Shown in pieces: positions 1-24,171 of a stretch of DNA of 24,171 bases. The stretch is from Candidatus Heimdallarchaeota archaeon (GTDB lineage: Archaea > Asgardarchaeota > Heimdallarchaeia > Heimdallarchaeales > Heimdallarchaeaceae). The translations under genes were made by a program, and so were the position numbers. Positions within the stretch are counted from its first letter, which is position 1, and the number at the start of each line of letters is the position of its first letter. The stretch spans positions 1 through 24,171 of the forward strand of contig JAEOSZ010000057.1 of assembly GCA_016840095.1 (NCBI GenBank), given 5' to 3'. The notes under the pieces were generated by a model that did not search any database, had not been told where the DNA came from, and saw only the letters and a list, made by a program, of their open reading frames with translations.

Positions 1-1389
1 ATCTCTACCTATCAATATCTTACTCTTCTCAAAGATGGAAGGAATAAATAATAGAAATGCAGCTATAATTGCTACAATTGAAGAGGAAAATTGTGGAAAT
101 AAAAATCTCTTAATTGTACCTTCTAGGAACCAAAGAATCAAAGCAAGTACGAAGACTGAAAGCACATAAATCTGTTTCTTGTTAAGATGACCCATGTTAT
201 CTAATTCTTTCTTAACTGCAGTTTTTGCGTTTGTAATACTGTCCTTTGGAACTTTTGGTTTATAAACCACCCACAGATACAACCATACTAATGGTAACAT
301 AAGAAAGACAACTGGTAATCCAAACGAAAACCATTGAATAAAAGTAATATGAACATCTGCATATTGACTTAATAGAGCAATAGCTATAGGATTTGCAGGA
401 GTTCCGATAGCTGATCCAATTCCTCCGATTGAAGCACTATATGCGATACCAAGTATGAGTGCTTTACTGTATCTATCTATTTTCTCTTCATCTATTTCTT
501 TGTTTACTTTTAATTTATCAGTAACTGCGACAGCTATTGGTATCATAGTTGCTGCTGTTGCAGTATTACTCATAAACATGGAGAGAACAGCTGTTACAAC
601 CATCATTAAAAGCATTAAAATTCTAGGATTGTCTGGACTTATTCTTACAATATTAAGAGAGATCCATTTATCTAGATCTGTTTTATTCATTGCTTTTGAT
701 ATAATAAATCCACCCAGAAACAGAAAAATTACTGGTTCTGCAAAAGGTGCGAGTAATCCTTTAGCAGGCAAAGTTAGAGCTAAGACACCAAAGATTGGAA
801 TCATTAAACTAGTGGCGACAAGAGGGATAGATTCCATAACCCATAGAATACCAACCATAAAGAGCAAGGATAAAACAATATTCGATTTATATGGCAGTCT
901 TATTCTGAATACAAGCCAATCTTGTTCTCTATAGTCTTTTTCTGATGATGAAGCAGGTAGAGTTAGATTAAGTCCACCTTTTACTCCACTAGAAATATCT
1001 ACACTGAAATTACCAATTGTAGGTGAAGGATTAGTTACAGTATTATTATTTATATCAGAAACAGTTGCTCTGATTACAAGTTGTTTGTTATATCCAACTT
1101 GAACTTTCGGAGAATATGCAATTCTCAAAGTTAGATTATCGCCAAGATCATATAGTTCTGTTACATCTGGAAAATCTGTTCCATTATGAAGGTAAAAAGT
1201 AAAATTAACATCCATGTTATACTGATGTGTCCCATTATCATAGAAACAATGAAGTGTAGCATCATGCAGAGCTTCGTTTTTTGTTCCAGCAACAGTTCCT
1301 CTTACTGAGGTCATAGAGATAGTTATAGCAGTAACTAGTAAAACAACAGTTATACCAATTTTGATTAATTCTTGCCTCTTAATTTCCAT
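1..1389 (-). CDS. DASS/SLC13 family sodium-coupled anion (dicarboxylate/citrate/sulfate) symporter with an extra N-terminal extracellular domain; 3' end outside the window
   Basis: Manual translation: ATG at 1389 preceded by AGGTGGG, frame open to base 1 (463 codons). Motifs LWVMESIPLVATSL, FAEPVIFLFLGGF, LSMFMSNTATAATMIPIA (SNT motif) and GIAYSASIGGIGSAIGTPAN are typical of DASS transporters. Confidence 0.93.
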   Translation of the reverse strand, partial: MEIKRQELIKIGITVVLLVTAITISMTSVRGTVAGTKNEALHDATLHCFYDNGTHQYNMDVNFTFYLHNGTDFPDVTELYDLGDNLTLRIAYSPKVQVGYNKQLVIRATVSDINNNTVTNPSPTIGNFSVDISSGVKGGLNLTLPASSSEKDYREQDWLVFRIRLPYKSNIVLSLLFMVGILWVMESIPLVATSLMIPIFGVLALTLPAKGLLAPFAEPVIFLFLGGFIISKAMNKTDLDKWISLNIVRISPDNPRILMLLMMVVTAVLSMFMSNTATAATMIPIAVAVTDKLKVNKEIDEEKIDRYSKALILGIAYSASIGGIGSAIGTPANPIAIALLSQYADVHITFIQWFSFGLPVVFLMLPLVWLYLWVVYKPKVPKDSITNAKTAVKKELDNMGHLNKKQIYVLSVFVLALILWFLEGTIKRFLFPQFSSSIVAIIAAFLLFIPSIFEKSKILIGRD

Positions 1390-12329: not shown

Positions 12330-12404
12330 ATTTTATCTGATATCTACCTCATCTTTTTAAATTCTTAATTGTATACTTTATTTTTGTTTGTAATTCCTTA
12401 AGTC

Positions 12405-14905
12405 TTTTAAGGTGGGTAAAATAAGCTAATTTGAATGAGAATAAGGTGGAATGGAGATAAGATTTTTGCATCTATATTAGCTATAGGCTTCTTATCTCTA
12501 GTAATTGTTTTTCCAGCTATTGTGACTAGAGAGACAGCTAAAAACTATGAAATATTCTCAGATCAAGATTTTGAAAAGTATAGGTTTGAAGGGGAAGGAA
12601 CTGAACACAATCCGTATGTAATAGAAAATCTCAGTATTTTGTATGCGAAGAAAAGAGCAATTATTATAGAAAACACTACTAGTTACTTTATTATAAGAAA
12701 TAACACAATAAAATTTAATGCGTTCAATGCAATTTCTATAAAATCAATTGCTCCAGGAACGGCAAAAATCTATAATAACACTTGTGTAGGGCACTCAACA
12801 GAAGGAATAAAAATCGTTTCGAGTGATTTTGTGGAGATCACTAACAACACTTGGCTAGATAACAAGATTGGAATAGGTATCTATGATTCAAACAACTGTA
12901 CAGTAGAGTATAATCAACTCCTAAGAACAATTCCTTTTTCAGAAAAAGCACCTATTTATAGTGTTGGTTTACTTTTATTAAACTCAAATTTCACATCTAT
13001 AATGAATAATTACTTCTTATATCCTGCTACTGGAATAGATTTAGAAAATAGTAACTATTGTATGATGAATAACAATAATATAGTTAGATCTTTCACCAAT
13101 GGAATCTTTATGAAATTCAGTTCTTTCTGTATAGTAAATAATACTATCATGCACCAAATTAGACATAATGGAATTAATTTGAGATATGCTCATCATAATG
13201 TACTTGAAAATTCAAGATCAAGTGAAAATACTCAAGGAATTGTCTTGCATCATAGTAACCAAAATCAACTTTCCTTCAATCAAATAATACAGAATGAAAT
13301 TGGGATACTAGTAACTGAGAGTAGCAGTGAAAATATATTTGAATTGAATGAGATAATTAACAATCTATATGATGGGTTTAAAATTGTATCAGGAAGTTTT
13401 AACAAAATTCATCATAATGATTTCTATTATAATAACTTAGCATATGTAATTCAGGCAAGTGATAGTGGAATCGACAACTTGTGGTATGATAATGTAACTT
13501 CAGAAGGCAACTACTGGAGTAGCTGGAATTCTTCTCTTCCTTATGAACTTCTAGGGAGTGCAAATAATACTGACCCCTTCCCTTTGAGTGATCCAGTTTC
13601 CCTTGTCTTCAAACAATCCTTATTAGTTTCTCACTTACAACTATTGACTTCTTCTTCAAGTGTTTATCTTTTATGTTGCCAATCATTAAGATTTTTAAGG
13701 GCTTCAAAAATCATCTAATTGAATGAGAGTAAGGATAGATGGAGACAAGATTTTTGCAATTATACTAGCCGTAGGTTTCCTATTTCTCACTATAGTTCTC
13801 CCTATGGTTTTGACTAGAGATCAAGTTAAAACCTATGAAATATTCTCAGATCAAGATTTCAAAAAATATAGGTTTGAAGGGGAAGGAACTGAGCAAAATC
13901 CGTTTTTAATCGAAAATCTAAGCATTGTTAACGGGATGAAAAGAGCGATTAACATTTCAAACACAAACAGCTACTTCATCATAAGAAATAACTTCTTATC
14001 ATATAATTTACTTTCTGCAATTTCCATAAAATCTATAGCTCCAGGAACGGCAAAAATCTATAATAACACTTGTATAGGGCACTCAACTGAAGGAATAAAA
14101 ATTGTTTCGAGTGATTTTGTGGAGATTACGAATAACACTTGTTTAGATAACAAAATTGGAATAGGTATTTATGATTCAAATAATTGCACAGTAGAGAATA
14201 ATCAGCTACTAAAATCACAACCTGTATCAGAACAAGAACCTAGTTCTAGTAGTGGTTTAATCATAGAAAAATCTAATTCGACATCCATAACAAACAATTA
14301 CATCAGAAATCCTGCTACCGGAATAGAGATAGAGAACAGTAACAATTGTATAATGGTCAATAATGATGTTACTAGAACATTCACCAATGGAATTATTATG
14401 AGATCTAGTTCTTATTGTACTTTACAAAATTCTGTTTCAGAAAGAAGTAAATATAATGGTATTAATTTGTATGATGCTCATTTCAATATACTCGAAAATT
14501 GTATAGCCAGTGATAATTTACAAGGAATAACCTTGCATAGTAGTAGCTTCAATCAGCTTTCTTTCAATCAATTAATAGATAATGTAATTGGGATACAATT
14601 ATCTGAGAGTAGTAATGGAAATATCATTACAATGAATGAATTATTGAATAATACTGAGGAAGGAGTAAATATTCTATCGGGGAGTAACAGCATTATTCAT
14701 CATAATTCTTTCTATGGCAATAATGAAGGTGAAACATCTCAAGCAAGAGATGATGGAATCGACAACTTGTGGTATGAAGATGTAACTTCAGAAGGCAACT
14801 ACTGGAGTAGTTGGAATTCTTCTTTACCATATGAACTTCTAGGGAGTGCAAACAATACTGATCCCTTCCCTTTGAGTGATCCAATTTTTCTTTTGCTTAA
14901 ACAAT
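12405..14905 (+). repeat. Tandem duplication with a 1288-bp period (promoter plus gene)
   Basis: Anchors 12405/13693 (TTTTAAGG), 12435/13723 (ATG), 12729/14017, 13467/14755 and 13611/14899 (AAACAAT) are all offset by 1288 nt. Confidence 0.9.
12435..13718 (+). CDS. Membrane-anchored right-handed parallel beta-helix (NosD/CASH-like) surface protein, copy 1
   Basis: N-terminal TM, GEGTEHNPYVIENL cap, repeated GIxLxxSxNxxIxNN coils, GNYWSSW...DPFPL end cap, many N-x-S/T sequons. Confidence 0.88.
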   Translation: MRIRWNGDKIFASILAIGFLSLVIVFPAIVTRETAKNYEIFSDQDFEKYRFEGEGTEHNPYVIENLSILYAKKRAIIIENTTSYFIIRNNTIKFNAFNAISIKSIAPGTAKIYNNTCVGHSTEGIKIVSSDFVEITNNTWLDNKIGIGIYDSNNCTVEYNQLLRTIPFSEKAPIYSVGLLLLNSNFTSIMNNYFLYPATGIDLENSNYCMMNNNNIVRSFTNGIFMKFSSFCIVNNTIMHQIRHNGINLRYAHHNVLENSRSSENTQGIVLHHSNQNQLSFNQIIQNEIGILVTESSSENIFELNEIINNLYDGFKIVSGSFNKIHHNDFYYNNLAYVIQASDSGIDNLWYDNVTSEGNYWSSWNSSLPYELLGSANNTDPFPLSDPVSLVFKQSLLVSHLQLLTSSSSVYLLCCQSLRFLRASKII

Positions 14906-14961
14906 ATTCTGTGTTTTCTTTTATACCTATAGTTGAACACTTCTTCTTTCTCTGTATCTAA
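13723..14961 (+). CDS. Membrane-anchored right-handed parallel beta-helix (NosD/CASH-like) surface protein, copy 2
   Basis: Collinear paralogue of 12435..13718 with the same motifs. Confidence 0.88.
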   Translation: MRVRIDGDKIFAIILAVGFLFLTIVLPMVLTRDQVKTYEIFSDQDFKKYRFEGEGTEQNPFLIENLSIVNGMKRAINISNTNSYFIIRNNFLSYNLLSAISIKSIAPGTAKIYNNTCIGHSTEGIKIVSSDFVEITNNTCLDNKIGIGIYDSNNCTVENNQLLKSQPVSEQEPSSSSGLIIEKSNSTSITNNYIRNPATGIEIENSNNCIMVNNDVTRTFTNGIIMRSSSYCTLQNSVSERSKYNGINLYDAHFNILENCIASDNLQGITLHSSSFNQLSFNQLIDNVIGIQLSESSNGNIITMNELLNNTEEGVNILSGSNSIIHHNSFYGNNEGETSQARDDGIDNLWYEDVTSEGNYWSSWNSSLPYELLGSANNTDPFPLSDPIFLLLKQYSVFSFIPIVEHFFFLCI

Positions 14962-15037
14962 AGTGACTCAACTAACTTTAGACAATACCTATGCAGTAAT
15001 AATGTAAATCGCATCAACTGAGAAAACAGAAAGATAG

Positions 15038-15052
15038 GGAAAAGTTATAAAA
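15038..15052 (+). promoter_or_regulatory. Putative BRE/TATA promoter of the sulfotransferase gene
   Basis: GGAAAAG-TTATAAAA, TATA element 24-31 nt upstream of the ATG at 15076. Confidence 0.55.
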
Positions 15053-15075
15053 ATTCAAGTAAGCGATATTATTTA

Positions 15076-16662
15076 ATGACACATTTCTGTTCGTCAAAGA
15101 CTATGAATTGTTTTTTTATGTCAATTATCACTTTTCTAATCTTCTTTTCATCACTTAGTTCAAATGTTGTAATATCAAATCATTTCCAAAAACAAGGTCA
15201 AATCATCACTTCCAATGGTTCTGAAAGATTTGAGGGCTTCAATCTATACGTTTTAGAGAGTAAAGCATTATCTAATTTCGAAGTATTAAATCGTACTTTA
15301 TTAGTCACTGATTTAGATGGCAAAATATATTTTAGTAGAGATGTTGGAATAACAGATTCTCTTGATACTAGACCAATTGAAATAATTAACTCAAATACTG
15401 TTCTCTATGGAACTGACTTGAAATCTTATCTTTGGAATATCGAAACTAATGAAACTACAGAGTTAAATTTTTGGTCTCACCACGATACAGAATACAATTA
15501 TGCTAATGAAACCTTTTTCACGCTTAAAAATTATGATATTGTATTTGATGAAAGATCATACAGATTTGAATACATCAACGAATATAATGAAGATGGAGAC
15601 CTTATTTGGTTTTTGGATACTAGAAGTTTTATTAACTACTCGCAGTGGTGTCCATTTGAAGATTCATCTCCTCCTTTTGACCAATATGGAGGAGTTAGAA
15701 ATATAGTTCATGCAAACGCAGTTTTTTATGACGAATCAACAGATATGATATATCTTAATTGTAGAAATGTTAATACTTTCTATAAAATCAGTCATGAAAC
15801 AAAAGAAGTCTTATGGGGATTAGGGGAATATGGAAATTTCACTTTGTTTGATATTCAGGGAAATGAGCAAGAACATCTTTTTTTCCATCCTCATGCTTTG
15901 GAAAAAATAAATGATAAGCAATTCCTCCTATTTGATAATGATTACCATAATCAAACAGATGCTACAAACATGATCTCGAGGTTAATAGAAATTACAATCG
16001 ATGAAGATAAAATGTTTGCAAATATCACACGAGAATGGAATTCTCCAAGTGATTACTTTAGCTTTAGTTATGGAGATTGTGACTTACTTCCCAATAATAA
16101 CTTGTTAGGGGTTTTTGGTACTTATACTCACCCAGAAAGTGACTTTGGAGCAATTATTTCTGAGATTGATATGAATGGAGATATTCAATGGGAGATTGCT
16201 TATCCAAATACTGGAGAGGTATCTTTTGATGTTTTCAAAGTTGAGAGATTAAGATTCGCTCCAGTTGTTTCATCTCCTATACTTGTAGATGAAGGCAATG
16301 GTACTATCTATTTTGAATGGGAGGTCTGGTATAATTTTAGATCTAAAACAAATTTTGTTGGTCAGTATTATATTACTCTAGAAAATCAAACTGTTCAAGA
16401 AGGAGATATTGAATTTCCTCGTTTTTGGCAACCAATCAAGGTGAGATATTACTTGGATGAACCTCCTGAAGGAGAAATAAATATTTCTTTAGCTGTTTCT
16501 GATGAAGAAGGACATTTATCAAATGAATCAGCCTTCATAAATGATCCTGATTCAACTAATCTGTTTAAAAGGAATCTAATTATCGGATTAAGCACTGGAG
16601 GTTTTACTTTAGGAGTAGTAGTAGTTGCTATATGGATAAAATATGTGAAAAAGAAACCATGA
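15076..16662 (+). CDS. Arylsulfate sulfotransferase (ASST)-family protein, exported, with C-terminal TM anchor
   Basis: SHHD, VHANAV, LNCRN, FHPHA, LLFDN, GDCDLLPNNN in ASST order; hydrophobic N-terminus; C-terminal TM followed by KYVKKKP. Confidence 0.82.
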   Translation: MTHFCSSKTMNCFFMSIITFLIFFSSLSSNVVISNHFQKQGQIITSNGSERFEGFNLYVLESKALSNFEVLNRTLLVTDLDGKIYFSRDVGITDSLDTRPIEIINSNTVLYGTDLKSYLWNIETNETTELNFWSHHDTEYNYANETFFTLKNYDIVFDERSYRFEYINEYNEDGDLIWFLDTRSFINYSQWCPFEDSSPPFDQYGGVRNIVHANAVFYDESTDMIYLNCRNVNTFYKISHETKEVLWGLGEYGNFTLFDIQGNEQEHLFFHPHALEKINDKQFLLFDNDYHNQTDATNMISRLIEITIDEDKMFANITREWNSPSDYFSFSYGDCDLLPNNNLLGVFGTYTHPESDFGAIISEIDMNGDIQWEIAYPNTGEVSFDVFKVERLRFAPVVSSPILVDEGNGTIYFEWEVWYNFRSKTNFVGQYYITLENQTVQEGDIEFPRFWQPIKVRYYLDEPPEGEINISLAVSDEEGHLSNESAFINDPDSTNLFKRNLIIGLSTGGFTLGVVVVAIWIKYVKKKP

Positions 16663-16723: not shown

Positions 16724-18154
16724 CTAATCTTCTTTGATTTCAATAGTCTTCTTACGCATAAGATATCTTTCATATTCAAAAGTCATTTCGCCACTACTTA
16801 GTTTAGTAAAATTTACATCCATATTGCCATAAGGAGTGATACAATAGAATTCCATAACTTTAGGATTTTTAGATTTTGGTATTATTGGATGTGATAATCT
16901 TCCATCCCAGAAATCTCCTTCAAGATAAAGGAGACCATTGCGTTCTTGGACATCAATTGTGAGAATTTTCTTGAAAGCCTCATATCTTCCACATAAATCA
17001 TTGTAATGCTTTCTTCTGATATAATATGGCATAACTTCCTTTGGTTCCTTTCCCATTAATAGAATAAAAGCCAAATGTTTTAGGATTCGAGGTAAGTAAG
17101 AAACATTATACAACTGAGCAAAAGTGATATTTAGTTCTGGCATATACCCAATCAAACCACCTGTAACTCCTGAGACACCTCTATGCGCTATCAAAGTATT
17201 TCCATGAAAATTCTCATAGACTCTCCACCCATAACCATAACCAAGTTTTACATCAGGAACATATTCATGGAAGGAATCGGTAATATTGGTATTATGAGGT
17301 TTTACCATCTCTTGAACAAGATCTTCAGATAATAATTTCTTACCTCTAAATTCCCCATTATTTAGAAAACATTGAAGATAATTAGTCATTTCTACTACAC
17401 TAGAAATCAACCCACCAGATCCAGCAGTAAAAGGACTAGAAAGCATATCTTGGGGATATCTATTAATTTGGTTTTCCTTCCAGATAAAGTTAAAACCCCG
17501 AGAATCATCCCCATCCTGTTCAGCTTCTTTATGTGAATAAGTACTTCTTTTCATATCCAATGGAAGTAATATGTTTTCCTTGACATATTCTTCATAGGGT
17601 TTACCACTCACTTTTTCGATAATTTGACTCAATAGTGCAAAAGCTCCATTCCAATAATAAAATTTGGTACCTGGAGGACTGATTACTTCATCTTTAGCTT
17701 CATTGATATGAAAGTAAAAATCATCCCAATTACCTAGAGGTATCATAGGTGTTTTACCAGGGTACAATTCCTGATTCATTTGTGCGAAGTAAAATGTATG
17801 TAATGCGGGAACTCCAGAAGAGTGACTCATTAGATGATGTGATGTGATTGGATTATCTTTGAATCCTATATCTACAGGAAGATAATCAGAAATTGGAGCA
17901 TGGATATCGAGTTTTCCAGCTTGAAATAGTTGCATAATCGCCAAGCTTGTGACTGACTTAGTTATTGAAGACGTACCATAAAGCGTATCAATAGTTGCAG
18001 GTTTAACATCTTTCTTCTTTCTCAAACCAAAAGCTCTTTGATATATTGTTTCACCATCCTTTGTTATTAAAAGCGACATTCCTGGAATTTTAGCATCCCT
18101 CATCAATTTGACAGTTTCATATTCAAATTCTCTTTTGAATCTTTCTAAATCCAT
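16724..18154 (-). CDS. Serine hydrolase of the beta-lactamase/penicillin-recognising family, Pab87 (CubicO)-like peptidase
   Basis: SITKS (SxxK), HHLMSHSSG, PGTKFYYWN (YxN), HRG triad, and a C-terminal beta domain ending FEYERY as I recall for Pyrococcus Pab87. ATG at 18154 (MDLERF) preferred to GTG at 18190 given the TATA at 18207-18214 and upstream GAAGTGAG. Confidence 0.87.
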   Translation of the reverse strand: MDLERFKREFEYETVKLMRDAKIPGMSLLITKDGETIYQRAFGLRKKKDVKPATIDTLYGTSSITKSVTSLAIMQLFQAGKLDIHAPISDYLPVDIGFKDNPITSHHLMSHSSGVPALHTFYFAQMNQELYPGKTPMIPLGNWDDFYFHINEAKDEVISPPGTKFYYWNGAFALLSQIIEKVSGKPYEEYVKENILLPLDMKRSTYSHKEAEQDGDDSRGFNFIWKENQINRYPQDMLSSPFTAGSGGLISSVVEMTNYLQCFLNNGEFRGKKLLSEDLVQEMVKPHNTNITDSFHEYVPDVKLGYGYGWRVYENFHGNTLIAHRGVSGVTGGLIGYMPELNITFAQLYNVSYLPRILKHLAFILLMGKEPKEVMPYYIRRKHYNDLCGRYEAFKKILTIDVQERNGLLYLEGDFWDGRLSHPIIPKSKNPKVMEFYCITPYGNMDVNFTKLSSGEMTFEYERYLMRKKTIEIKED

Positions 18155-18199
18155 ATATCTCACTTCTTTTGACTGTTCAACTATATGCACACACTAATT

Positions 18200-18331: not shown

Positions 18332-20074
18332 TTGAGAAAAACAATCTTAATTAGCTGTGCTATTTTTATGGCTTCAATTATGGTACTTTCTCCAGCAATG
18401 TCAGTTTATGCTCAAGAGCCAGCAGTTGGTGGAACTTATAAGACAAGAATCACCTCTGATATTCTTACTCTAAATCCCTGGTTCTGGGGAATGATGATTG
18501 AAAGTTATATAATGGGACACATGTATGATGCCATGGTAACTTACGATGTGAATAATGTTCTACGGTTAGAACTCTGTGATTCGTATACGGTAAGTCCTGA
18601 TTTCACAACATGGACATGGAATTTAGTACAAGACGCATATTGGCATGATGGTCAACAAGTTACGGCGGATGACGTTGTCTGGACTTGGCAAACTTTAGCT
18701 GATGATCCAGGTATTCCAAGACGAAGTTGGTTATACGATGAAGTTGTCAACATCACAAAAATAACTGATTTTCAAATTGAACTTGAACTATCTTATGGAC
18801 CCAAACCAGTAGATGTTTTAGTTGAAATTGGAACAGATTGGATTTTACCAGAACACATCTGGGATACAATAGATGTATATGATTTCACCAATGACAATCC
18901 AGTAGGATGCGGACCCTTCACATGGGGAGAACGCGAACCAAGTCAATACTTTATTCTCTATAGAAACCCAGACTACTACTTACCCGGTCCTTATGTTGAA
19001 GAAAAAATCATCACCATAATACCAGATGAGTCTACTGCATATTACGCACTAAGTGTTGGAGATATAGACATTTATGATGGTCCACCTCCAGAACTAGAAG
19101 CAGTTGCAGAAAACGATCCTAACATATTCTTGCACGACTATCTCGCAGACTTTATCATGTATCTTGGTGTTAACCAACGAAGATGGCCTAACAATATAAC
19201 TGAATTCAAACAAGCTGTTTTAACAGGTATTGATAGAGAAGCAGTTCGACAAATCGTTTTCGGTGGTAGAGGAGTAGTTGCTGAAGCATCAATGAGTCTT
19301 CCAAGAGGTCCATACTACAATCCAAATATTCCAAAATATGAATATAATGTAACATGGGCTAATGCGACACTTGACAGTATCGGAGTTGTTGATAGCGATG
19401 CCGATGGATGGCGAGAAGCGAATGGAACAGAAATTGCATTTGATCTATTAGTAAGTGCGGAATATCAAGATTCAGTCGATACAGTTAGATTGATGGCTGA
19501 TAATATGGCAGACTTAGGAATAGAGGTAAATGTCAAACCAGTTCTATGGCCAATTCTCTGGCAAACTGTTGGTGGTGCGGGACATCTCGGAGGAGATTAC
19601 GACTATCCTGGTAAATACGACTATGATTGGGCATATCTAGGTTGGTCAGGTTTCTGGAGCGATTTCCATCCAAGTTGGATGGGTTGGATGTACGGTATAG
19701 ACCAGTGGTGGGGATCAGATGATGTCAATATTCCTGGATGGAACAGTTCAGTCAGATGGGAAGTTAATGACATAATCGAAGATATTCAACTAGAGACAGA
19801 TGAAGCAGTTTATACAGCTCTATTAAAAGAAGCTCAACTTCTTGTAGCACAAGATCTATGTTATCTTCCAATAATCAACACTGGTGGTGTATCACTCTAT
19901 CGAAAAGATTCAGTAGATGGATACATTATGGGTGAAACAGCTGGACCTGATAACTTCGAATCTGATATCGCAGTTTACTCTGTTGCAGAGAAAACAGATG
20001 GTTTCCAGGTAATAGCAGCAGTAATCTCACTTAGTGCTATTGGATTTGCACTCTATAGAAAACGTCGAAAATAA
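18332..20074 (+). CDS. oppA: Peptide/nickel ABC transporter substrate-binding protein (family 5, OppA/DppA-like) with C-terminal anchor
   Basis: Signal peptide, WHDGQQVTADDVVWT signature, PVGCGPF, RNPDYY, IDREAV; C-terminal DGF-TM-RKRRK; TTG start. Confidence 0.92.
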   Translation: MRKTILISCAIFMASIMVLSPAMSVYAQEPAVGGTYKTRITSDILTLNPWFWGMMIESYIMGHMYDAMVTYDVNNVLRLELCDSYTVSPDFTTWTWNLVQDAYWHDGQQVTADDVVWTWQTLADDPGIPRRSWLYDEVVNITKITDFQIELELSYGPKPVDVLVEIGTDWILPEHIWDTIDVYDFTNDNPVGCGPFTWGEREPSQYFILYRNPDYYLPGPYVEEKIITIIPDESTAYYALSVGDIDIYDGPPPELEAVAENDPNIFLHDYLADFIMYLGVNQRRWPNNITEFKQAVLTGIDREAVRQIVFGGRGVVAEASMSLPRGPYYNPNIPKYEYNVTWANATLDSIGVVDSDADGWREANGTEIAFDLLVSAEYQDSVDTVRLMADNMADLGIEVNVKPVLWPILWQTVGGAGHLGGDYDYPGKYDYDWAYLGWSGFWSDFHPSWMGWMYGIDQWWGSDDVNIPGWNSSVRWEVNDIIEDIQLETDEAVYTALLKEAQLLVAQDLCYLPIINTGGVSLYRKDSVDGYIMGETAGPDNFESDIAVYSVAEKTDGFQVIAAVISLSAIGFALYRKRRK

Positions 20075-20229: not shown

Positions 20230-21222
20230 ATGGGATTGAAAGGATATATTGCAAAAAAGATCTTGTTTGCTTTGATTGCATACTTCATCGCGATTACTGT
20301 GGTTTTTCTCATCTATCATGCTATGCCAGGTAATCCTGCTGATATCTTCGCCCTTGACCCAAGAGTACCTCCTGATGTAAGAGAACATCTTTTAGAAAGA
20401 TGGGGTTTAAATGAACCATTATGGAAACAGTATGGCCTCTTTTTAAGAAATATCTTCCAAGGAGACCTTGGCTTTTCATTTCTTCATAGAAAAGATGTAA
20501 GTGTTTTAATTGGTGAAAGAATTCCATGGACACTTCTTTTATTAGGATCAGCATTTGTAATAAATGGATTAGTTGGTATTTTTCTTGGTTCATTTGTAGC
20601 TTGGAGAAGAGGATCAAAGACAGACACAGCCTTTGTTTTGACTTATAATATCTATAACGCATTACCATTATTCTTTGTTGGAATGATGTTTATAGCATTC
20701 TTTGGCTTTTATGCTAGAACACATGGATGGGCAATATGGTTCCCATTTGTAGGTGCGAAAACGCCACTTATAGAAAGAGAAGGAACGTTAGCACTAATAT
20801 TAGATGTTCTTTGGCATTTAGTATTACCACTTTCAACGTTGGTAATTGCAGGAATCTTGGGTTGGTCCTGGTTTATGAGAGGTAACCTAATCAACGTAAA
20901 AACTGAAGATTACATTCAAACAGCAAGAGCTAAAGGGCTCAAAGAAAGAAAAGTACTTTACAGACATGGTGTTAGAAATGCATTGCTTCCAGTTATTACA
21001 GATATTGGAATGAGTATAGGCTGGCTTATAGGAGGTTCTGTACTTATAGAAACGGTTTTCGCGTATCCAGGAACGGGAAGATTACTTTATGAGGCGATAA
21101 TGTTTAAGGATTATCCACTACTACAGGGATCTTTCATTATTATTGCGGGATTAACACTGTTAGGACTACTCATTGCTGAGTTACTTTATGGATTTGTAGA
21201 TCCAAGGATTAGAACTTCATAG
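20230..21222 (+). CDS. oppB: Peptide ABC transporter permease
   Basis: MPGNPA, GLNEPLWKQY, GDLGFS, HLVLP, EDYIQTARAKGL (EAA loop), RNALLP, IETVFAYPGTG, DPRIR. Confidence 0.93.
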   Translation: MGLKGYIAKKILFALIAYFIAITVVFLIYHAMPGNPADIFALDPRVPPDVREHLLERWGLNEPLWKQYGLFLRNIFQGDLGFSFLHRKDVSVLIGERIPWTLLLLGSAFVINGLVGIFLGSFVAWRRGSKTDTAFVLTYNIYNALPLFFVGMMFIAFFGFYARTHGWAIWFPFVGAKTPLIEREGTLALILDVLWHLVLPLSTLVIAGILGWSWFMRGNLINVKTEDYIQTARAKGLKERKVLYRHGVRNALLPVITDIGMSIGWLIGGSVLIETVFAYPGTGRLLYEAIMFKDYPLLQGSFIIIAGLTLLGLLIAELLYGFVDPRIRTS

Positions 21223-21233
21223 GTGAAAAAAAG

Positions 21234-22142
21234 ATGGCATTTAGAATAAGAAAACCTAATATAGGTAACATCAGTCGAAGATTAAAGAGAACTGGATCTA
21301 ACTTAAAAGTATTCAGCAAGAATTGGATGGGTGTAACTGGATTTATCCTTTTACTAATTATAATCGTGTTAGCAATAGGTGGAGAAAATTTTACTGAATA
21401 TGATCCTTATGAGTATTCAATTGAAGATCCAACACAGCCTCCAAGTAGCGAACACTGGTTAGGTACTAATAGATATGGACAAGATGTTTTTACTATTCTT
21501 CTAACTAGTCTCAGAATCTCATTATTAGTGGGACTCGTTGCAGGGAGCTTAACTGTACTTATTGGGACAACGATAGGAGTTGCGAGTGCATATATTGGCG
21601 GATGGGTGGATGTTGTAATTATGAGAATAACGGATGTGGTATTAGTTATGCCAGCATTACCACTTATGCTTGTACTAGCATCACTTCCATTCCTCGGGGG
21701 AACAACCCATTGGTCAGTTGTAGCGATAGTTTACGTGGTAGTATTCTGGCCTGTATCTGCTCGTTTGATACGTGGTCAAGCATTATCTCTTAAAATGAGA
21801 GCATTTGTTACAAGTGCAAAAGCAGCAGGCGCAAGTAGAAGATATATTATCTTTAAACACATACTTCCTAATGTTTTTCCACTAATGCTAACCATGATCA
21901 TAACATCTATGAGACAAGCGATTCTATATGAATCATTCTTAGCTTATCTCGGCTTAGGAGATCCTTTGAATTGGACACTTGGACAAATGCTTCATATAGC
22001 TCAAGTTCATGCAGCATTTGCTTCAGGAGCATGGTGGCTGTTCTTCCCACCAGGGATTATGATAGGGTTAATAACTTTGAGTTTTGCATTCATTGGAATA
22101 GCTTTCGATGAAATCGTAAATCCAAGGCTGAGAAAAAGGTGA
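21234..22142 (+). CDS. oppC: Peptide ABC transporter permease
   Basis: PPSSEHWLGTNRYGQD, ARLIRGQ, FVTSAKAAGAS, HILPN, NPRLR; GGTGA SD upstream. Confidence 0.93.
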   Translation: MAFRIRKPNIGNISRRLKRTGSNLKVFSKNWMGVTGFILLLIIIVLAIGGENFTEYDPYEYSIEDPTQPPSSEHWLGTNRYGQDVFTILLTSLRISLLVGLVAGSLTVLIGTTIGVASAYIGGWVDVVIMRITDVVLVMPALPLMLVLASLPFLGGTTHWSVVAIVYVVVFWPVSARLIRGQALSLKMRAFVTSAKAAGASRRYIIFKHILPNVFPLMLTMIITSMRQAILYESFLAYLGLGDPLNWTLGQMLHIAQVHAAFASGAWWLFFPPGIMIGLITLSFAFIGIAFDEIVNPRLRKR

Positions 22143-22146
22143 TAAA

Positions 22147-23220
22147 ATGTCGAAAAGTAAACAAAAACCGATACTAGAAGTACAAAATCTGAAAACATAC
22201 TTCCATACAAGAGGAGGAGCAGTTAAAGCTGTAGATGACGTGAGTTTTAAACTTCAAAGAGGAGAAGTTCTCGGTCTTGCAGGAGAAAGTGGTTGTGGTA
22301 AAACCACTTCCTGTCTTTCTATTATGCGGATGATACCTGAACCTGGGGAGATAATGGAAGGTCAACTCATCTATGATAAAGCATTCGAAGTAATGGATGA
22401 TAGAAAGACTATCAAAGAAAGAGTGAAGGAACGTCGTCTTACTAAGAAAGGAGAAGTAATCGAAAGAACAAATAATTTGCTGGAACTTAGAAATCATGAG
22501 ATGAGAAGAATAAGAGGTAATCATATTGCCATGATATTTCAAGGTGCAATGAATGCTCTTAATCCAGTCCATAGAGTTGGAGATCAGATTCTAGAAGCAA
22601 TAAAGATCCATGATACAGTAATTGACAAAACAGACGCTTGGGACAAAGTAATTGACATACTAGAAACTGTCGGAATTGATTCTTCTAGAGCTCGAGATTA
22701 TCCTCATCAACTAAGTGGGGGTATGAAACAAAGAGCTCTAATTGCAATGGCTCTCGTTAATAATCCTGATATTGTGATTGCTGATGAACCTGTTACAGCG
22801 TTAGATGTAATAGTTCAATCACAAGTTCTAAAAGCAACTAAACACTTGCAAAAGGAATTTGATTTGTCTATGATCATGATTACACATGATTTATCTGTTA
22901 TTGCAGAAGTCTGTGAAACAGTAGCTATTATGTATGCAGGTAAACTCGTTGAATATGGTGATCTTCGTACAATATTCAAAGAGCCTTTTCATCCTTATAC
23001 TCAAGCGTTAATTGACTCATTTCCGAGTATTGTTGGAGAAAAGAAAGAGTTATATGAGATTGGAGGTGCTCCTCCTGATTTGCGAAATCCACCATTAGGT
23101 TGTCGATTTCACCCACGATGTCCGAAAGCTATGCCTATTTGCAGTAAAAAAATACCTTCAAACACAGAAATGAAAGACGGTTTTGTGGCTTGCTGGCTCT
23201 ATGAAGAGGAGGAGAAATGA
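22147..23220 (+). CDS. oppD: Peptide ABC transporter ATP-binding protein
   Basis: Walker A GESGCGKT, IFQ Q-loop, LSGGMKQR, IADEP, ITHD, HPYT, C-terminal GCRFHPRC..C..VAC oligopeptide-ABC domain. Confidence 0.95.
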   Translation: MSKSKQKPILEVQNLKTYFHTRGGAVKAVDDVSFKLQRGEVLGLAGESGCGKTTSCLSIMRMIPEPGEIMEGQLIYDKAFEVMDDRKTIKERVKERRLTKKGEVIERTNNLLELRNHEMRRIRGNHIAMIFQGAMNALNPVHRVGDQILEAIKIHDTVIDKTDAWDKVIDILETVGIDSSRARDYPHQLSGGMKQRALIAMALVNNPDIVIADEPVTALDVIVQSQVLKATKHLQKEFDLSMIMITHDLSVIAEVCETVAIMYAGKLVEYGDLRTIFKEPFHPYTQALIDSFPSIVGEKKELYEIGGAPPDLRNPPLGCRFHPRCPKAMPICSKKIPSNTEMKDGFVACWLYEEEEK

Positions 23221-24171
23221 AAATGAAAACGACAACATCTGAAACTTTAGATAATTTCTCACTTGGTTTAATAGGAAACGCAGGAATCTTGTTTGTTATT
23301 GTAGCTGTAATAAATGTAATTCTTGATATCATTGGTCAAGTTCTTGACATCTATACTTTATCGCTTATATCAGTAATACTGCTTAACCTTGCAATAGTAA
23401 TGTTAGGGGTTTCAATAGGGAGAATTGCGATAAAAAATCCCAAAATTAGACTTAATGCAATTATAGTTGGGACTAGCTTAGCTCTTCTAGTAATCTTCAG
23501 TATTCTTAGTAGTGTATTTACTGCTATATATCCCCAATTTGTTCTAGTGGATTACCAACTTATTGTTGTGATGACAATCGGGAGTTTAAATCTTGTATCT
23601 CGTGTGATTGCATTTACACTGCTGAATACATTTTTTAAGCGAATATCTAAACCTGAGTATACAATGGAATCATTAATTTTTCCATTTTATGGATGGTATG
23701 GTGTCCTTGCTGTGGTTTCTTTAATATTAACAATGTATGTCTCTAATATTGCGTTGCTTCTATTTGTTACAATCGTAATTATCCTTGGAGAGATTGTGGT
23801 TCAATATGCTATAGGTGACAAACTTATCCGAAGTTCTGTTAAAGCACAATTAGCAATTCTGGAACCAGTTCCTGTTGCAACATATGCTGAAGATCAAACA
23901 AGATCTAAAGAACAAGCAGTAATAGAAGCTGTTCATCTGGAAAAACTATTCCCAGTTATGTTCGGTTTCTTTTCTAGCATTTTCTCTATTGAAGCTATTC
24001 AGAAATTTGTACAAATGACAAAATACTATTTCTCTAATATTTTCTCAAAGGAACGAACCAAATCGATTGGTTTACTTCTACGAGAATACTATACAAAAGT
24101 ATTCACAGGAGGAGAAAAACACTTTGTTCATGCAGTAGACGATGTGTCCTTTAAAATATACAAAGGAGAAA
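23217..24171 (+). CDS. Fusion of a ~6-TM membrane domain and an OppF/DppF-like ABC ATPase; 3' end outside the window
   Basis: ATG at 23217 overlaps the oppD stop (ATGA); 318 codons open to the window end. Residues ~15-200 are hydrophobic helices; then VIEAVHLEKLFPV...HFVHAVDDVSFKIYKGE, the typical start of an OppF NBD. Walker A would fall just beyond the window. Confidence 0.85.
   Translation, partial: MKMKTTTSETLDNFSLGLIGNAGILFVIVAVINVILDIIGQVLDIYTLSLISVILLNLAIVMLGVSIGRIAIKNPKIRLNAIIVGTSLALLVIFSILSSVFTAIYPQFVLVDYQLIVVMTIGSLNLVSRVIAFTLLNTFFKRISKPEYTMESLIFPFYGWYGVLAVVSLILTMYVSNIALLLFVTIVIILGEIVVQYAIGDKLIRSSVKAQLAILEPVPVATYAEDQTRSKEQAVIEAVHLEKLFPVMFGFFSSIFSIEAIQKFVQMTKYYFSNIFSKERTKSIGLLLREYYTKVFTGGEKHFVHAVDDVSFKIYKGE

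Follow-up and report, generated by a model that had tools for sequence, protein, structure and literature searches.

A putative accessory membrane module fused in frame to the OppF-type ATPase of a peptide importer in Heimdallarchaeota

Type I ATP-binding cassette (ABC) importers consist of two permeases and two soluble ATPases. The 24,171-nucleotide contig JAEOSZ010000057.1 from a Candidatus Heimdallarchaeota archaeon (GenBank assembly GCA_016840095.1), analyzed here over its entire length and referred to as the window, encodes an OppABCDF peptide importer operon whose closing gene (23217..24171, plus strand) begins with a string of hydrophobic segments and continues into the N-terminus of an OppF-type ATPase. 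An initial annotation made from the sequence had read this gene as an ATPase fused to a membrane domain of its own, which could tether, sense or regulate. The locus thus raises the question of whether the two parts indeed form one polypeptide and, if so, what the membrane domain is, where else it occurs and what it could add to an importer. We find that the gene very probably specifies a single membrane-anchored polypeptide, in which a six-helix membrane domain (henceforth module Y) is followed by a linker and a complete OppF-type ATPase. Taken as a whole, the reading that this is one gene and that Y serves as a tethered accessory membrane bundle is one that we hold with moderate confidence.

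Of the 710 codons of the fused gene the window contains the first 318, in one open frame that is cut short by the contig end. The window is the entire contig C35 of the genome G000, a metagenome-assembled genome (MAG) in 165 contigs with an estimated contamination of 7.8%. It ends 5 codons (15 nt) short of the Walker A motif, which is found on a second contig of the same genome, C9 (2662 nt). The reverse complement of C9 opens with the final 127 nt of the window (24045..24171, plus strand), an exact identity that is the sole such match in the assembly and represents the k-mer overlap used for joining the two. The joined open reading frame (ORF) codes for 710 amino acids and contains all the ABC motifs along with the oligo_HPY tail. 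The contig break has no bearing on the fusion itself, because the junction between the transmembrane (TM) part and the nucleotide-binding domain (NBD) lies well inside C35. A contiguous orthologue, P0054 (the counterpart of the copy in genome G006), is a 711-residue protein encoded by one called gene on a 44-kb ENA contig, and its end-to-end alignment with the joined protein (710 columns, 5 gaps) shows 61% identity. Its gene order (a Pab87-type beta-lactamase-fold gene, OppA, OppB, OppC, OppD, the fused gene and a gene combining tetratricopeptide repeats (TPR) with a helix-turn-helix (HTH) domain) is the same as that of the window, save for the TPR-HTH gene, which falls beyond the reach of the window. 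P0051, the 596-residue fusion of genome G021, is complete on a 45-kb contig, and is the only other full-length fusion found in a database of 5.8 billion clusters. The linkers have strongly diverged among G000, G006, G021 and G015, the last of which carries Y on OppD, yet the frame is open in all four species. Further, the fused protein has no ATG from residue 175 to residue 248, and the gene callers of both NCBI and ENA predict a single gene. Hence, the architecture first described for the window, namely one frame with TM segments, a linker of about 30 residues (29 by our delineation) and an OppF N-terminus, with neither a stop nor an obvious start ahead of the NBD, was borne out. Extension of the gene beyond the contig and inspection of related genomes, both of which had been put forward as checks, gave the 710-residue ORF and the further occurrences in G006/P0054, G021 (P0051) and, on OppD, in G015. 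Nor did any of the observations that had been named as potentially damaging materialize: no stop or frameshift interrupts the linker in the assemblies of the four species, in none of the relatives examined is Y encoded separately at the Opp locus, and Walker A, Walker B and the ABC signature are all present downstream.

The start codon of the fused gene overlaps the TGA stop of OppD (ATGA), with the stretch GAGGAGGAG just 5' of it. The gene thereby closes an operon in which OppA, OppB, OppC and OppD lie directly upstream on the same strand. OppA (18332..20074, 580 aa), as judged from its translation and a match to Pfam SBP_bac_5 (E 2.9e-64), is the substrate-binding protein; OppB (20230..21222, 330 aa; Pfam BPD_transp_1 and BPD_transp_1_N) and OppC (21234..22142, 302 aa; Pfam BPD_transp_1 and OppC_N) are the permeases; and OppD (22147..23220, 357 aa; Pfam ABC_tran and oligo_HPY, with OppD as its best NCBIfam model) is a soluble ATPase. 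As both permeases are present and of normal length by Pfam, in agreement with the initial annotation, the extra TM domain is a third membrane module and not a stand-in for a missing permease.

C-terminal to the membrane domain, the Pro/Glu/Gln-rich linker (residues 205-233; 23829..23915) lacks a start codon and leads into the first beta-strand of the OppF NBD (residues 234-247; 23916..23957), which ends in LEKLFPV and was located by alignment with the N-termini of plain OppF proteins of relatives. Between this strand and the second NBD strand (HAVDDVSF...KGE; 24120..24170) lies a 54-residue insertion comprised of amphipathic helices (insertion 1, residues 248-301; 23958..24119), which is not coupled to Y because the plain OppF proteins of G004 and G015 also possess it. 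The remainder of the joined protein displays, in the expected order, Walker A (GESGCGKST, 324-332), the Q-loop (FQNPY, 477-481, within a match to IVFQNPY at 475-481), the signature (LSGGQRQR, 537-544), Walker B (FVVADEP, 557-563) and the H-loop (ITHDL, 593-597), and is recognized by the Pfam models ABC_tran (E 1.6e-27) and oligo_HPY (E 8.7e-20). Its best matches among PDB chains are those of Escherichia coli OppBCDF (8Z21), DppBCDF (8Z1V) and Mycobacterium tuberculosis OppABCD (8J5Q), with E-values of 1e-99 to 1e-67. Among the NCBIfam models OppF fits best, and this equivalog model (NF011659) yields 307 bits against a cut-off of 540 for P0002 (residues 277-710, which include a large insertion); by profile matches and motifs the fused ATPase is thus a member of the OppF family, and by this model not an equivalog. 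Four cysteines are found in the oligo_HPY domain of OppF (in the tail encoded by C9) and in that of OppD (window 23100-23220); in E. coli DppD and DppF four such cysteines bind a [4Fe-4S] cluster needed for the stability of the complex (PMC12136057). In solved Opp and Dpp systems the ATPases are soluble proteins of about 330 residues with a C-terminal [4Fe-4S] domain, as in E. coli DppBCDF (PMC12136057). The resemblance of residues 234-710 to known OppF and DppF proteins extends to the full set of NBD motifs, the four-cysteine oligo_HPY domain and the OppABCDF operon context; the fused protein differs from these soluble proteins of about 330 residues in the 6-TM domain and linker, and in two insertions of 54 and about 115 residues. 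The latter of these, a charged and helix-prone segment between Walker A and the Q-loop (residues ~351-470; L002:326-1627, minus strand), is independent of Y, since it occurs in G004, G015 and P0054 and not in G021 and G002. A similarly charged, helix-prone insertion of about 35 residues is present between Walker A and the Q-loop of OppD (OppD residues ~70-105).

Module Y itself spans residues 1-215 (23217..23861, plus strand), as delineated by hydropathy, AlphaFold2 (AF2) modeling and three family alignments (A1-A3). Kyte-Doolittle analysis reveals hydrophobic segments at about residues 22-40, 48-68, 82-100, 112-133, 153-173 and 177-197; these include all five segments initially quoted from the sequence, the sixth being that at 112-133. 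Lysine and arginine abound in the loops at 69-81 and 134-152, and by the positive-inside rule both termini are predicted to be cytoplasmic, which fits the requirement of an attached ATPase. An AF2 model built from a 43-sequence alignment (predicted local distance difference test score (pLDDT) 93.5, predicted TM-score (pTM) 0.88) has six long antiparallel helices arranged in an up-down bundle: helix 1 (residues 13-43; 23253..23345), helix 2 (48-73; 23358..23435), helix 3 (75-107; 23439..23537), helix 4 (112-143; 23550..23645), helix 5 (154-173; 23676..23735) and helix 6 (178-214; 23748..23858), the last of which reaches into the cytoplasm. By both hydropathy and this model the extracellular loops are very short. 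The best-conserved stretch of the family (23601..23702) runs on the predicted cytoplasmic face from the cytoplasmic end of helix 4 to the start of helix 5, and takes the form R129-x3-F133-x2-L-N137-x2-F140-K141, a loop, and F-x-F/L-Y-G-W. Within it F133, N137 and F140 are invariant among the 14 diverse members of alignment A2, and F133, N137, F140, K141, F155 and Y158 are invariant in A1. The copy in the window is recovered by the family profile with an E-value of 1.4e-70, and possesses the motif R-x3-F-x2-(L)N-x2-F(K). A full-length AF2 model of P0054, in which Y has a pLDDT of 76-93 and the linker one below 50, is poor overall (pLDDT 60.6, pTM 0.39), probably on account of a messy mixed alignment, and was used for the confidence of Y and the linker alone.

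Sequence searches for known relatives of this domain were negative: no Pfam or NCBIfam model matches the TM part of the window gene (P0001; Pfam E <=0.1) or any of the 43 aligned family members (Pfam E <=1), a profile search of PDB sequences with Y found nothing, and a locus search with P0001 as query recovered no relatives. Foldseek comparison of Y against the PDB gave nothing convincing (best E 0.67), and with VIA-align the closest structures were a designed six-helix barrel (Z 13.1) and bundles resembling rhodopsin and G-protein-coupled receptors (Z 10-12), which is the generic level for helical bundles. In the ESM Atlas, the structural neighbors (TM-scores of 0.59-0.69) comprise six-TM hypothetical proteins as well as HdeD/DUF308 and LiaF-TM. 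The scores for HdeD/DUF308 and LiaF-TM are 0.59-0.65 over 174-183 residues, which is common among up-down bundles, and no Pfam signal for these families is seen in the 43 members. We considered and rejected an identity as a BPD_transp_1 permease domain, as residues 1-215 have neither a Pfam match nor the EAA motif (the absence of which had been correctly observed from the start), and as DUF973 or DUF996, for which the scores of a protein language model (0.78-0.84) were below the useful range and Pfam gave no confirmation. Thus Y is, to the extent that profile and fold comparisons define it, an uncatalogued family of membrane domains, and not a permease domain.

A profile of Y searched against 1.84 billion representative proteins recovered 48 clusters (E <=1e-3). 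Across the phylum, for which 400 genomes were searched in all, Y is present in 26 of the 30 genomes (five genera) of the Heimdallarchaeota family to which the window belongs (f1), with one marginal match in the 370 others. Most members are free-standing proteins of two forms: 1) proteins of about 250-280 residues, in which Y is followed by a C-terminal zinc ribbon; and 2) proteins of about 450-590 residues that combine Y with a zinc ribbon, a further TM domain and a coiled coil. The source genome of the window has three further Y paralogues within 12 kb of contig C126 (3814-4416, minus strand; 12348-13106, plus strand; and 14893-15705, minus strand), of which one is about 543 residues long and includes both a zinc ribbon and a second TM domain, and the other two measure about 250-270 residues. 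The six-helix domain and loop motif of the free-standing proteins, such as these paralogues and P0003, are homologous to those of the fused protein and their Pro-rich linker is similar to its linker, whereas their tail consists of a zinc ribbon, with or without a second TM domain and coiled coil, in place of an ABC ATPase. In a tree of the module, the four Opp-fused copies and the free-standing P0003 (260 residues; Y plus zinc ribbon) form a single clade with support of 100/99, and P0003, the nearest free-standing relative, has the Pro-rich linker in common with the fused copies. This shared linker suggests that the fusion came about through a Y gene, minus its zinc ribbon, that was inserted between the start codon of OppF and the first NBD strand, and that the ATPase took the place of the zinc ribbon in the fused protein. 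In G004 the locus syntenic with that of P0003 (G004:C75, L008, 1492-1797) retains only a 102-codon remnant comprising helices 5-6, the linker and half of the zinc ribbon.

To place the fusion in context, OppABCDF operons orthologous to that of the window were compared across 14 members of the genus; their genomes are incomplete MAGs (63-95% complete), and absence here means not found in those searched. Y resides on OppF in G000, G006 and G021, and on OppD in G015. In the latter, it forms the N-terminus of OppD (G015:C418 5971-7698; L005/L168) on a contig that ends exactly at the overlap between the OppD stop and the OppF start, while a second contig (G015:C32, L170) takes up at the very next base with a plain OppF, the first three residues of which are those of the window gene. 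As these two contigs do not overlap, their adjacency is deduced from the reconstituted junction sequence. No extra module is seen in G004, G005 and G011, and G013 has merely a short one-helix extension on OppB. A tree of the concatenated OppB, OppC and OppD core places (G000, G006) and (G015, (G004, G021)) in separate, well-supported clades, implying that Y was gained, moved or lost more than once.

The other six genomes carry a different addition, unit X, a repeat of about 125 residues with four helices; in the proteins that carry it, Pfam recognizes nothing other than OppC_N and BPD_transp_1. It occurs as one copy at the N-terminus of OppC in G002 (L158:4384-5886), G017 and G022, and as three or four copies at the same position in G001, G023 and G016, in which a related extension is additionally found on OppB. 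Thus, in G001 OppC reaches 679 aa (L161:3532-5571) next to the extended OppB (L161:1921-3522), and in G016 OppC has 834 aa from stop to stop (L163:3086-5587). A further site is evident in the metagenomic OppF orthologues P0066, P0068 and P0070 (572-579 aa; L179:7001-8719), wherein X is inserted between NBD strands 1 and 2 (hmmsearch E ~1e-18), precisely at the site of insertion 1 of the window protein; together with an additional helical hairpin it amounts to six hydrophobic segments, and the OppC of these operons has 716 aa. Among the 400 genomes of the phylum that were searched, X was found only within Opp genes, and in 8 genomes: 7 of the 30 that make up the family, and a single one from a different family. 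A homology between X and Y was considered and discarded: hmmsearch gave no cross match and hhalign a probability of 0.3%, and the two are accordingly treated as unrelated. Across the lineage, extra TM modules occupy five sites of one orthologous importer, namely the N-termini of OppB, OppC, OppD and OppF and a loop in the NBD of OppF. All additions of Y and X enter the membrane from the cytoplasmic side and have an even number of helices, and the total of extra TM helices per importer varies from 0 to about 20 within one Asgard genus. The portable, family-restricted nature of Y and the five points of attachment are an addition to what had been observed in the window.

This architecture had not been recognized as a described one when the window was first read, and our searches agree. 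We found no literature on TM-fused OppF or OppD, on accessory TM domains in ABC importers or on Opp systems of Heimdallarchaeota, and no family model, structure or paper that covers modules X and Y or the attachment of a non-permease TM domain to OppD or OppF. As sister species carry Y or a different extra module on other subunits of this transporter, the module seems to be a portable addition to a textbook ABC importer that has not been described before. Accessory membrane domains of ABC transporters are known mainly from eukaryotic-type exporters in the form of TMD0, which is found in ABCC proteins (SUR, MRP1), ABCB6 and TAP1/2 as 4-5 helices N-terminal to the core TM domain (TMD), begins outside the cytoplasm, lies apart from the translocation core, whose mechanism does not require it, and acts as a module for interaction or targeting. 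Like TMD0, Y is an extra N-terminal helical bundle, and a similar role may be envisaged for it; unlike TMD0, it precedes the NBD of a type I importer whose core TMDs are separate proteins (OppB and OppC) rather than a core TMD, has six helices with both ends in the cytoplasm, and lacks any sequence or specific fold similarity to TMD0. The order of six TM helices, cytoplasmic linker and first NBD strand also recalls an ABC exporter half-transporter. However, Y shows no signal of ABC_membrane or BPD_transp_1 and lacks an EAA loop as well as long intracellular coupling helices, and its operon already supplies both permeases.

By analogy with TMD0, we propose that Y may act as an accessory membrane bundle, a role to which we give about an even chance. 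It would be tethered by the flexible linker beside the OppB/OppC core, outside both the translocation path and the ATP site, where it could keep OppF at the membrane and offer a lateral surface for interactions. Candidate partners would be the periphery of OppBC, the TM anchor at the C-terminus of OppA, lipids or a further membrane protein. The point of attachment would probably be unimportant, given that Y is on OppD in one sister species and that X is found elsewhere on OppC, on OppB or inside OppF. This role is suggested by several considerations: the permeases are complete, Y has no features of a coupling loop, the OppD and OppF sites are interchangeable, an unrelated module does likewise at other sites, and Y is dispensable in sister species. 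A predicted complex of OppB, OppC and Y (with alignments as input and without control runs) gave an ipSAE of 0.00-0.01, against a mark of 0.32, which counts neither for nor against docking. With regard to the OppA anchor, the C-terminus of OppA (window 19990-20074) is a hydrophobic helix followed by KRRK, as it is in the orthologues, and may be a partner of the accessory TM modules.

A number of observations weigh against this proposal or the assembly on which it is built. First, Y is weakly constrained: by the Nei-Gojobori method its ratio of nonsynonymous to synonymous substitutions (dN/dS) is about 0.44-0.65 (~0.62 between G000 and G006 and 0.44 between G021 and G015), against 0.06-0.10 for OppB, OppC and OppD in the same pairs, values that are rough because synonymous sites are near saturation but that have Y evolving 5-8 times faster; in terms of amino acid identity, Y stands at 44% and the core genes at 82-87%. 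Second, it is missing from the operons of close relatives, including G004, the sister of G021. The module is thus open, hydrophobic and intact in its motif, yet weakly constrained and dispensable over evolutionary time, and its rapid evolution together with its absence from close relatives makes a weak or even neutral role possible. Third, the best-conserved part of the family is a motif in a cytoplasmic loop, which fits a specific partner or signaling better than a passive anchor. Fourth, the analogy with TMD0 is loose, as the latter is attached to a core TMD and not to an NBD. Finally, the join of C35 and C9 is a k-mer overlap in a MAG with some estimated contamination, although P0054 nonetheless supports it.

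The third of these points leads to the main rival of the accessory-bundle role, that Y is a sensor or regulator which reads a cue from the membrane or the exterior, or binds a partner via its cytoplasmic loop, and thereby gates ATP hydrolysis by the attached NBD, much as MalK, MetN and ModC bear regulatory domains at their C-termini. Apart from the conserved motif that links helices 4 and 5, this would accord with the free-standing members, in which Y is joined to a cytoplasmic zinc ribbon in the manner of a membrane input module, and with the presence of LiaF-TM and bundles resembling 7TM receptors among its weak structural neighbors, though such matches are at the level of any helical bundle. 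A long linker that is predicted to be disordered would be a poor conduit for a conformational signal, and the extracellular loops are very short; moreover, Y is found on either OppD or OppF, and the unrelated X at yet other sites. We consider a sensor, on balance, unlikely.

Less likely still is that Y is a near-neutral passenger, i.e., that a lineage-specific membrane gene landed between oppD and oppF and was fused in frame, that it is tolerated because it leaves the transporter undisturbed while adding nothing to its function, and that some lineages are now losing it. The elevated dN/dS of Y relative to the core genes, its patchy presence among close relatives (with G004, G005 and G011 lacking it) and the truncated remnant of a P0003-type gene in G004 are what such a history would leave behind. 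Nevertheless, five independent sequences with identities of 36-52% all preserve the frame, the six hydrophobic helices and the loop motif, dN/dS is below 1, and the AF2 confidence of the module is very high. The repeated and independent addition of TM segments, with Y on OppD and OppF and X on OppB, OppC and OppF, is also hard to explain without some benefit.

It is very improbable that Y and OppF are instead two separate proteins, either because translation also begins internally, close to where helix 6 ends, or through cleavage of the linker, leaving a soluble OppF. The window gene does have a GTG at residue 195 preceded by GGAGAG, and the disorder predicted for the linker could render it accessible to proteases; however, the GTG lies inside TM helix 6 and only 3 nt from this Shine-Dalgarno-like hexamer. 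None of the four species has a stop between the parts. A methionine ahead of the NBD is lacking in the fused forms of G006, G021 and G015 as well, whereas the plain OppF proteins of G004, G015 and others start with a methionine at exactly this position, and plain OppD proteins keep theirs; to this are added the ATG-free interval and the single-gene calls described above. Although the gene is spread over two contigs of a MAG with some contamination, a frameshift, chimeric assembly or binning error behind the apparent fusion is scarcely credible, as the TM-to-NBD junction is wholly within C35 and away from the contig break, and the same architecture recurs in independent assemblies from other samples (P0054, P0051, G006 and G015).

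Extending the accessory-bundle proposal to both modules, one might imagine Y and X to be portable accessory subunits that are supplied in cis from any site facing the cytoplasm, and that form an outer shell around OppBC to dock the OppA anchor or other partners and thus control assembly, localization or activity; we regard this as a tentative and rather doubtful generalization. Were it true, it would amount to a new architectural principle for ABC importers, in the archaea most closely related to eukaryotes, with parallels to the eukaryotic TMD0. If the modules have a role, they represent a natural experiment in the recruitment of accessory membrane domains to ABC transporters, in which operons with and without a module can be directly compared among close relatives such as G021 and G004. 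If they are near-neutral, they clearly exemplify how a membrane complex can tolerate the in-frame accretion of domains. Y also represents a new membrane-domain family with a confidently predicted fold, limited to one family of Heimdallarchaeota.

Two genes flanking the operon deserve mention. Adjoining oppA in divergent orientation is a gene (16724-18190, minus strand) for a beta-lactamase-fold protein with a Pab87 octamerization domain, and a Pab87-type gene has the same neighborhood in the contigs of P0054 and P0070. Going by the name of the family, we take Pab87 to be a self-compartmentalizing serine peptidase of the D-aminopeptidase type. The location of this peptidase beside oppA and its synteny in relatives hint that the importer and the peptidase handle the same peptides. 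On the other side, 3' of the fused gene in every orthologous locus examined, is the above-mentioned TPR protein of about 720-740 residues with a winged-HTH domain (G000:C9, L002 ~1-290, minus strand; L178:9173-11344; L106:6866-9058), which is a possible regulator of the Opp operon. The linker of the window gene also resembles the linker of the free-standing proteins in which Y is joined to a zinc ribbon.

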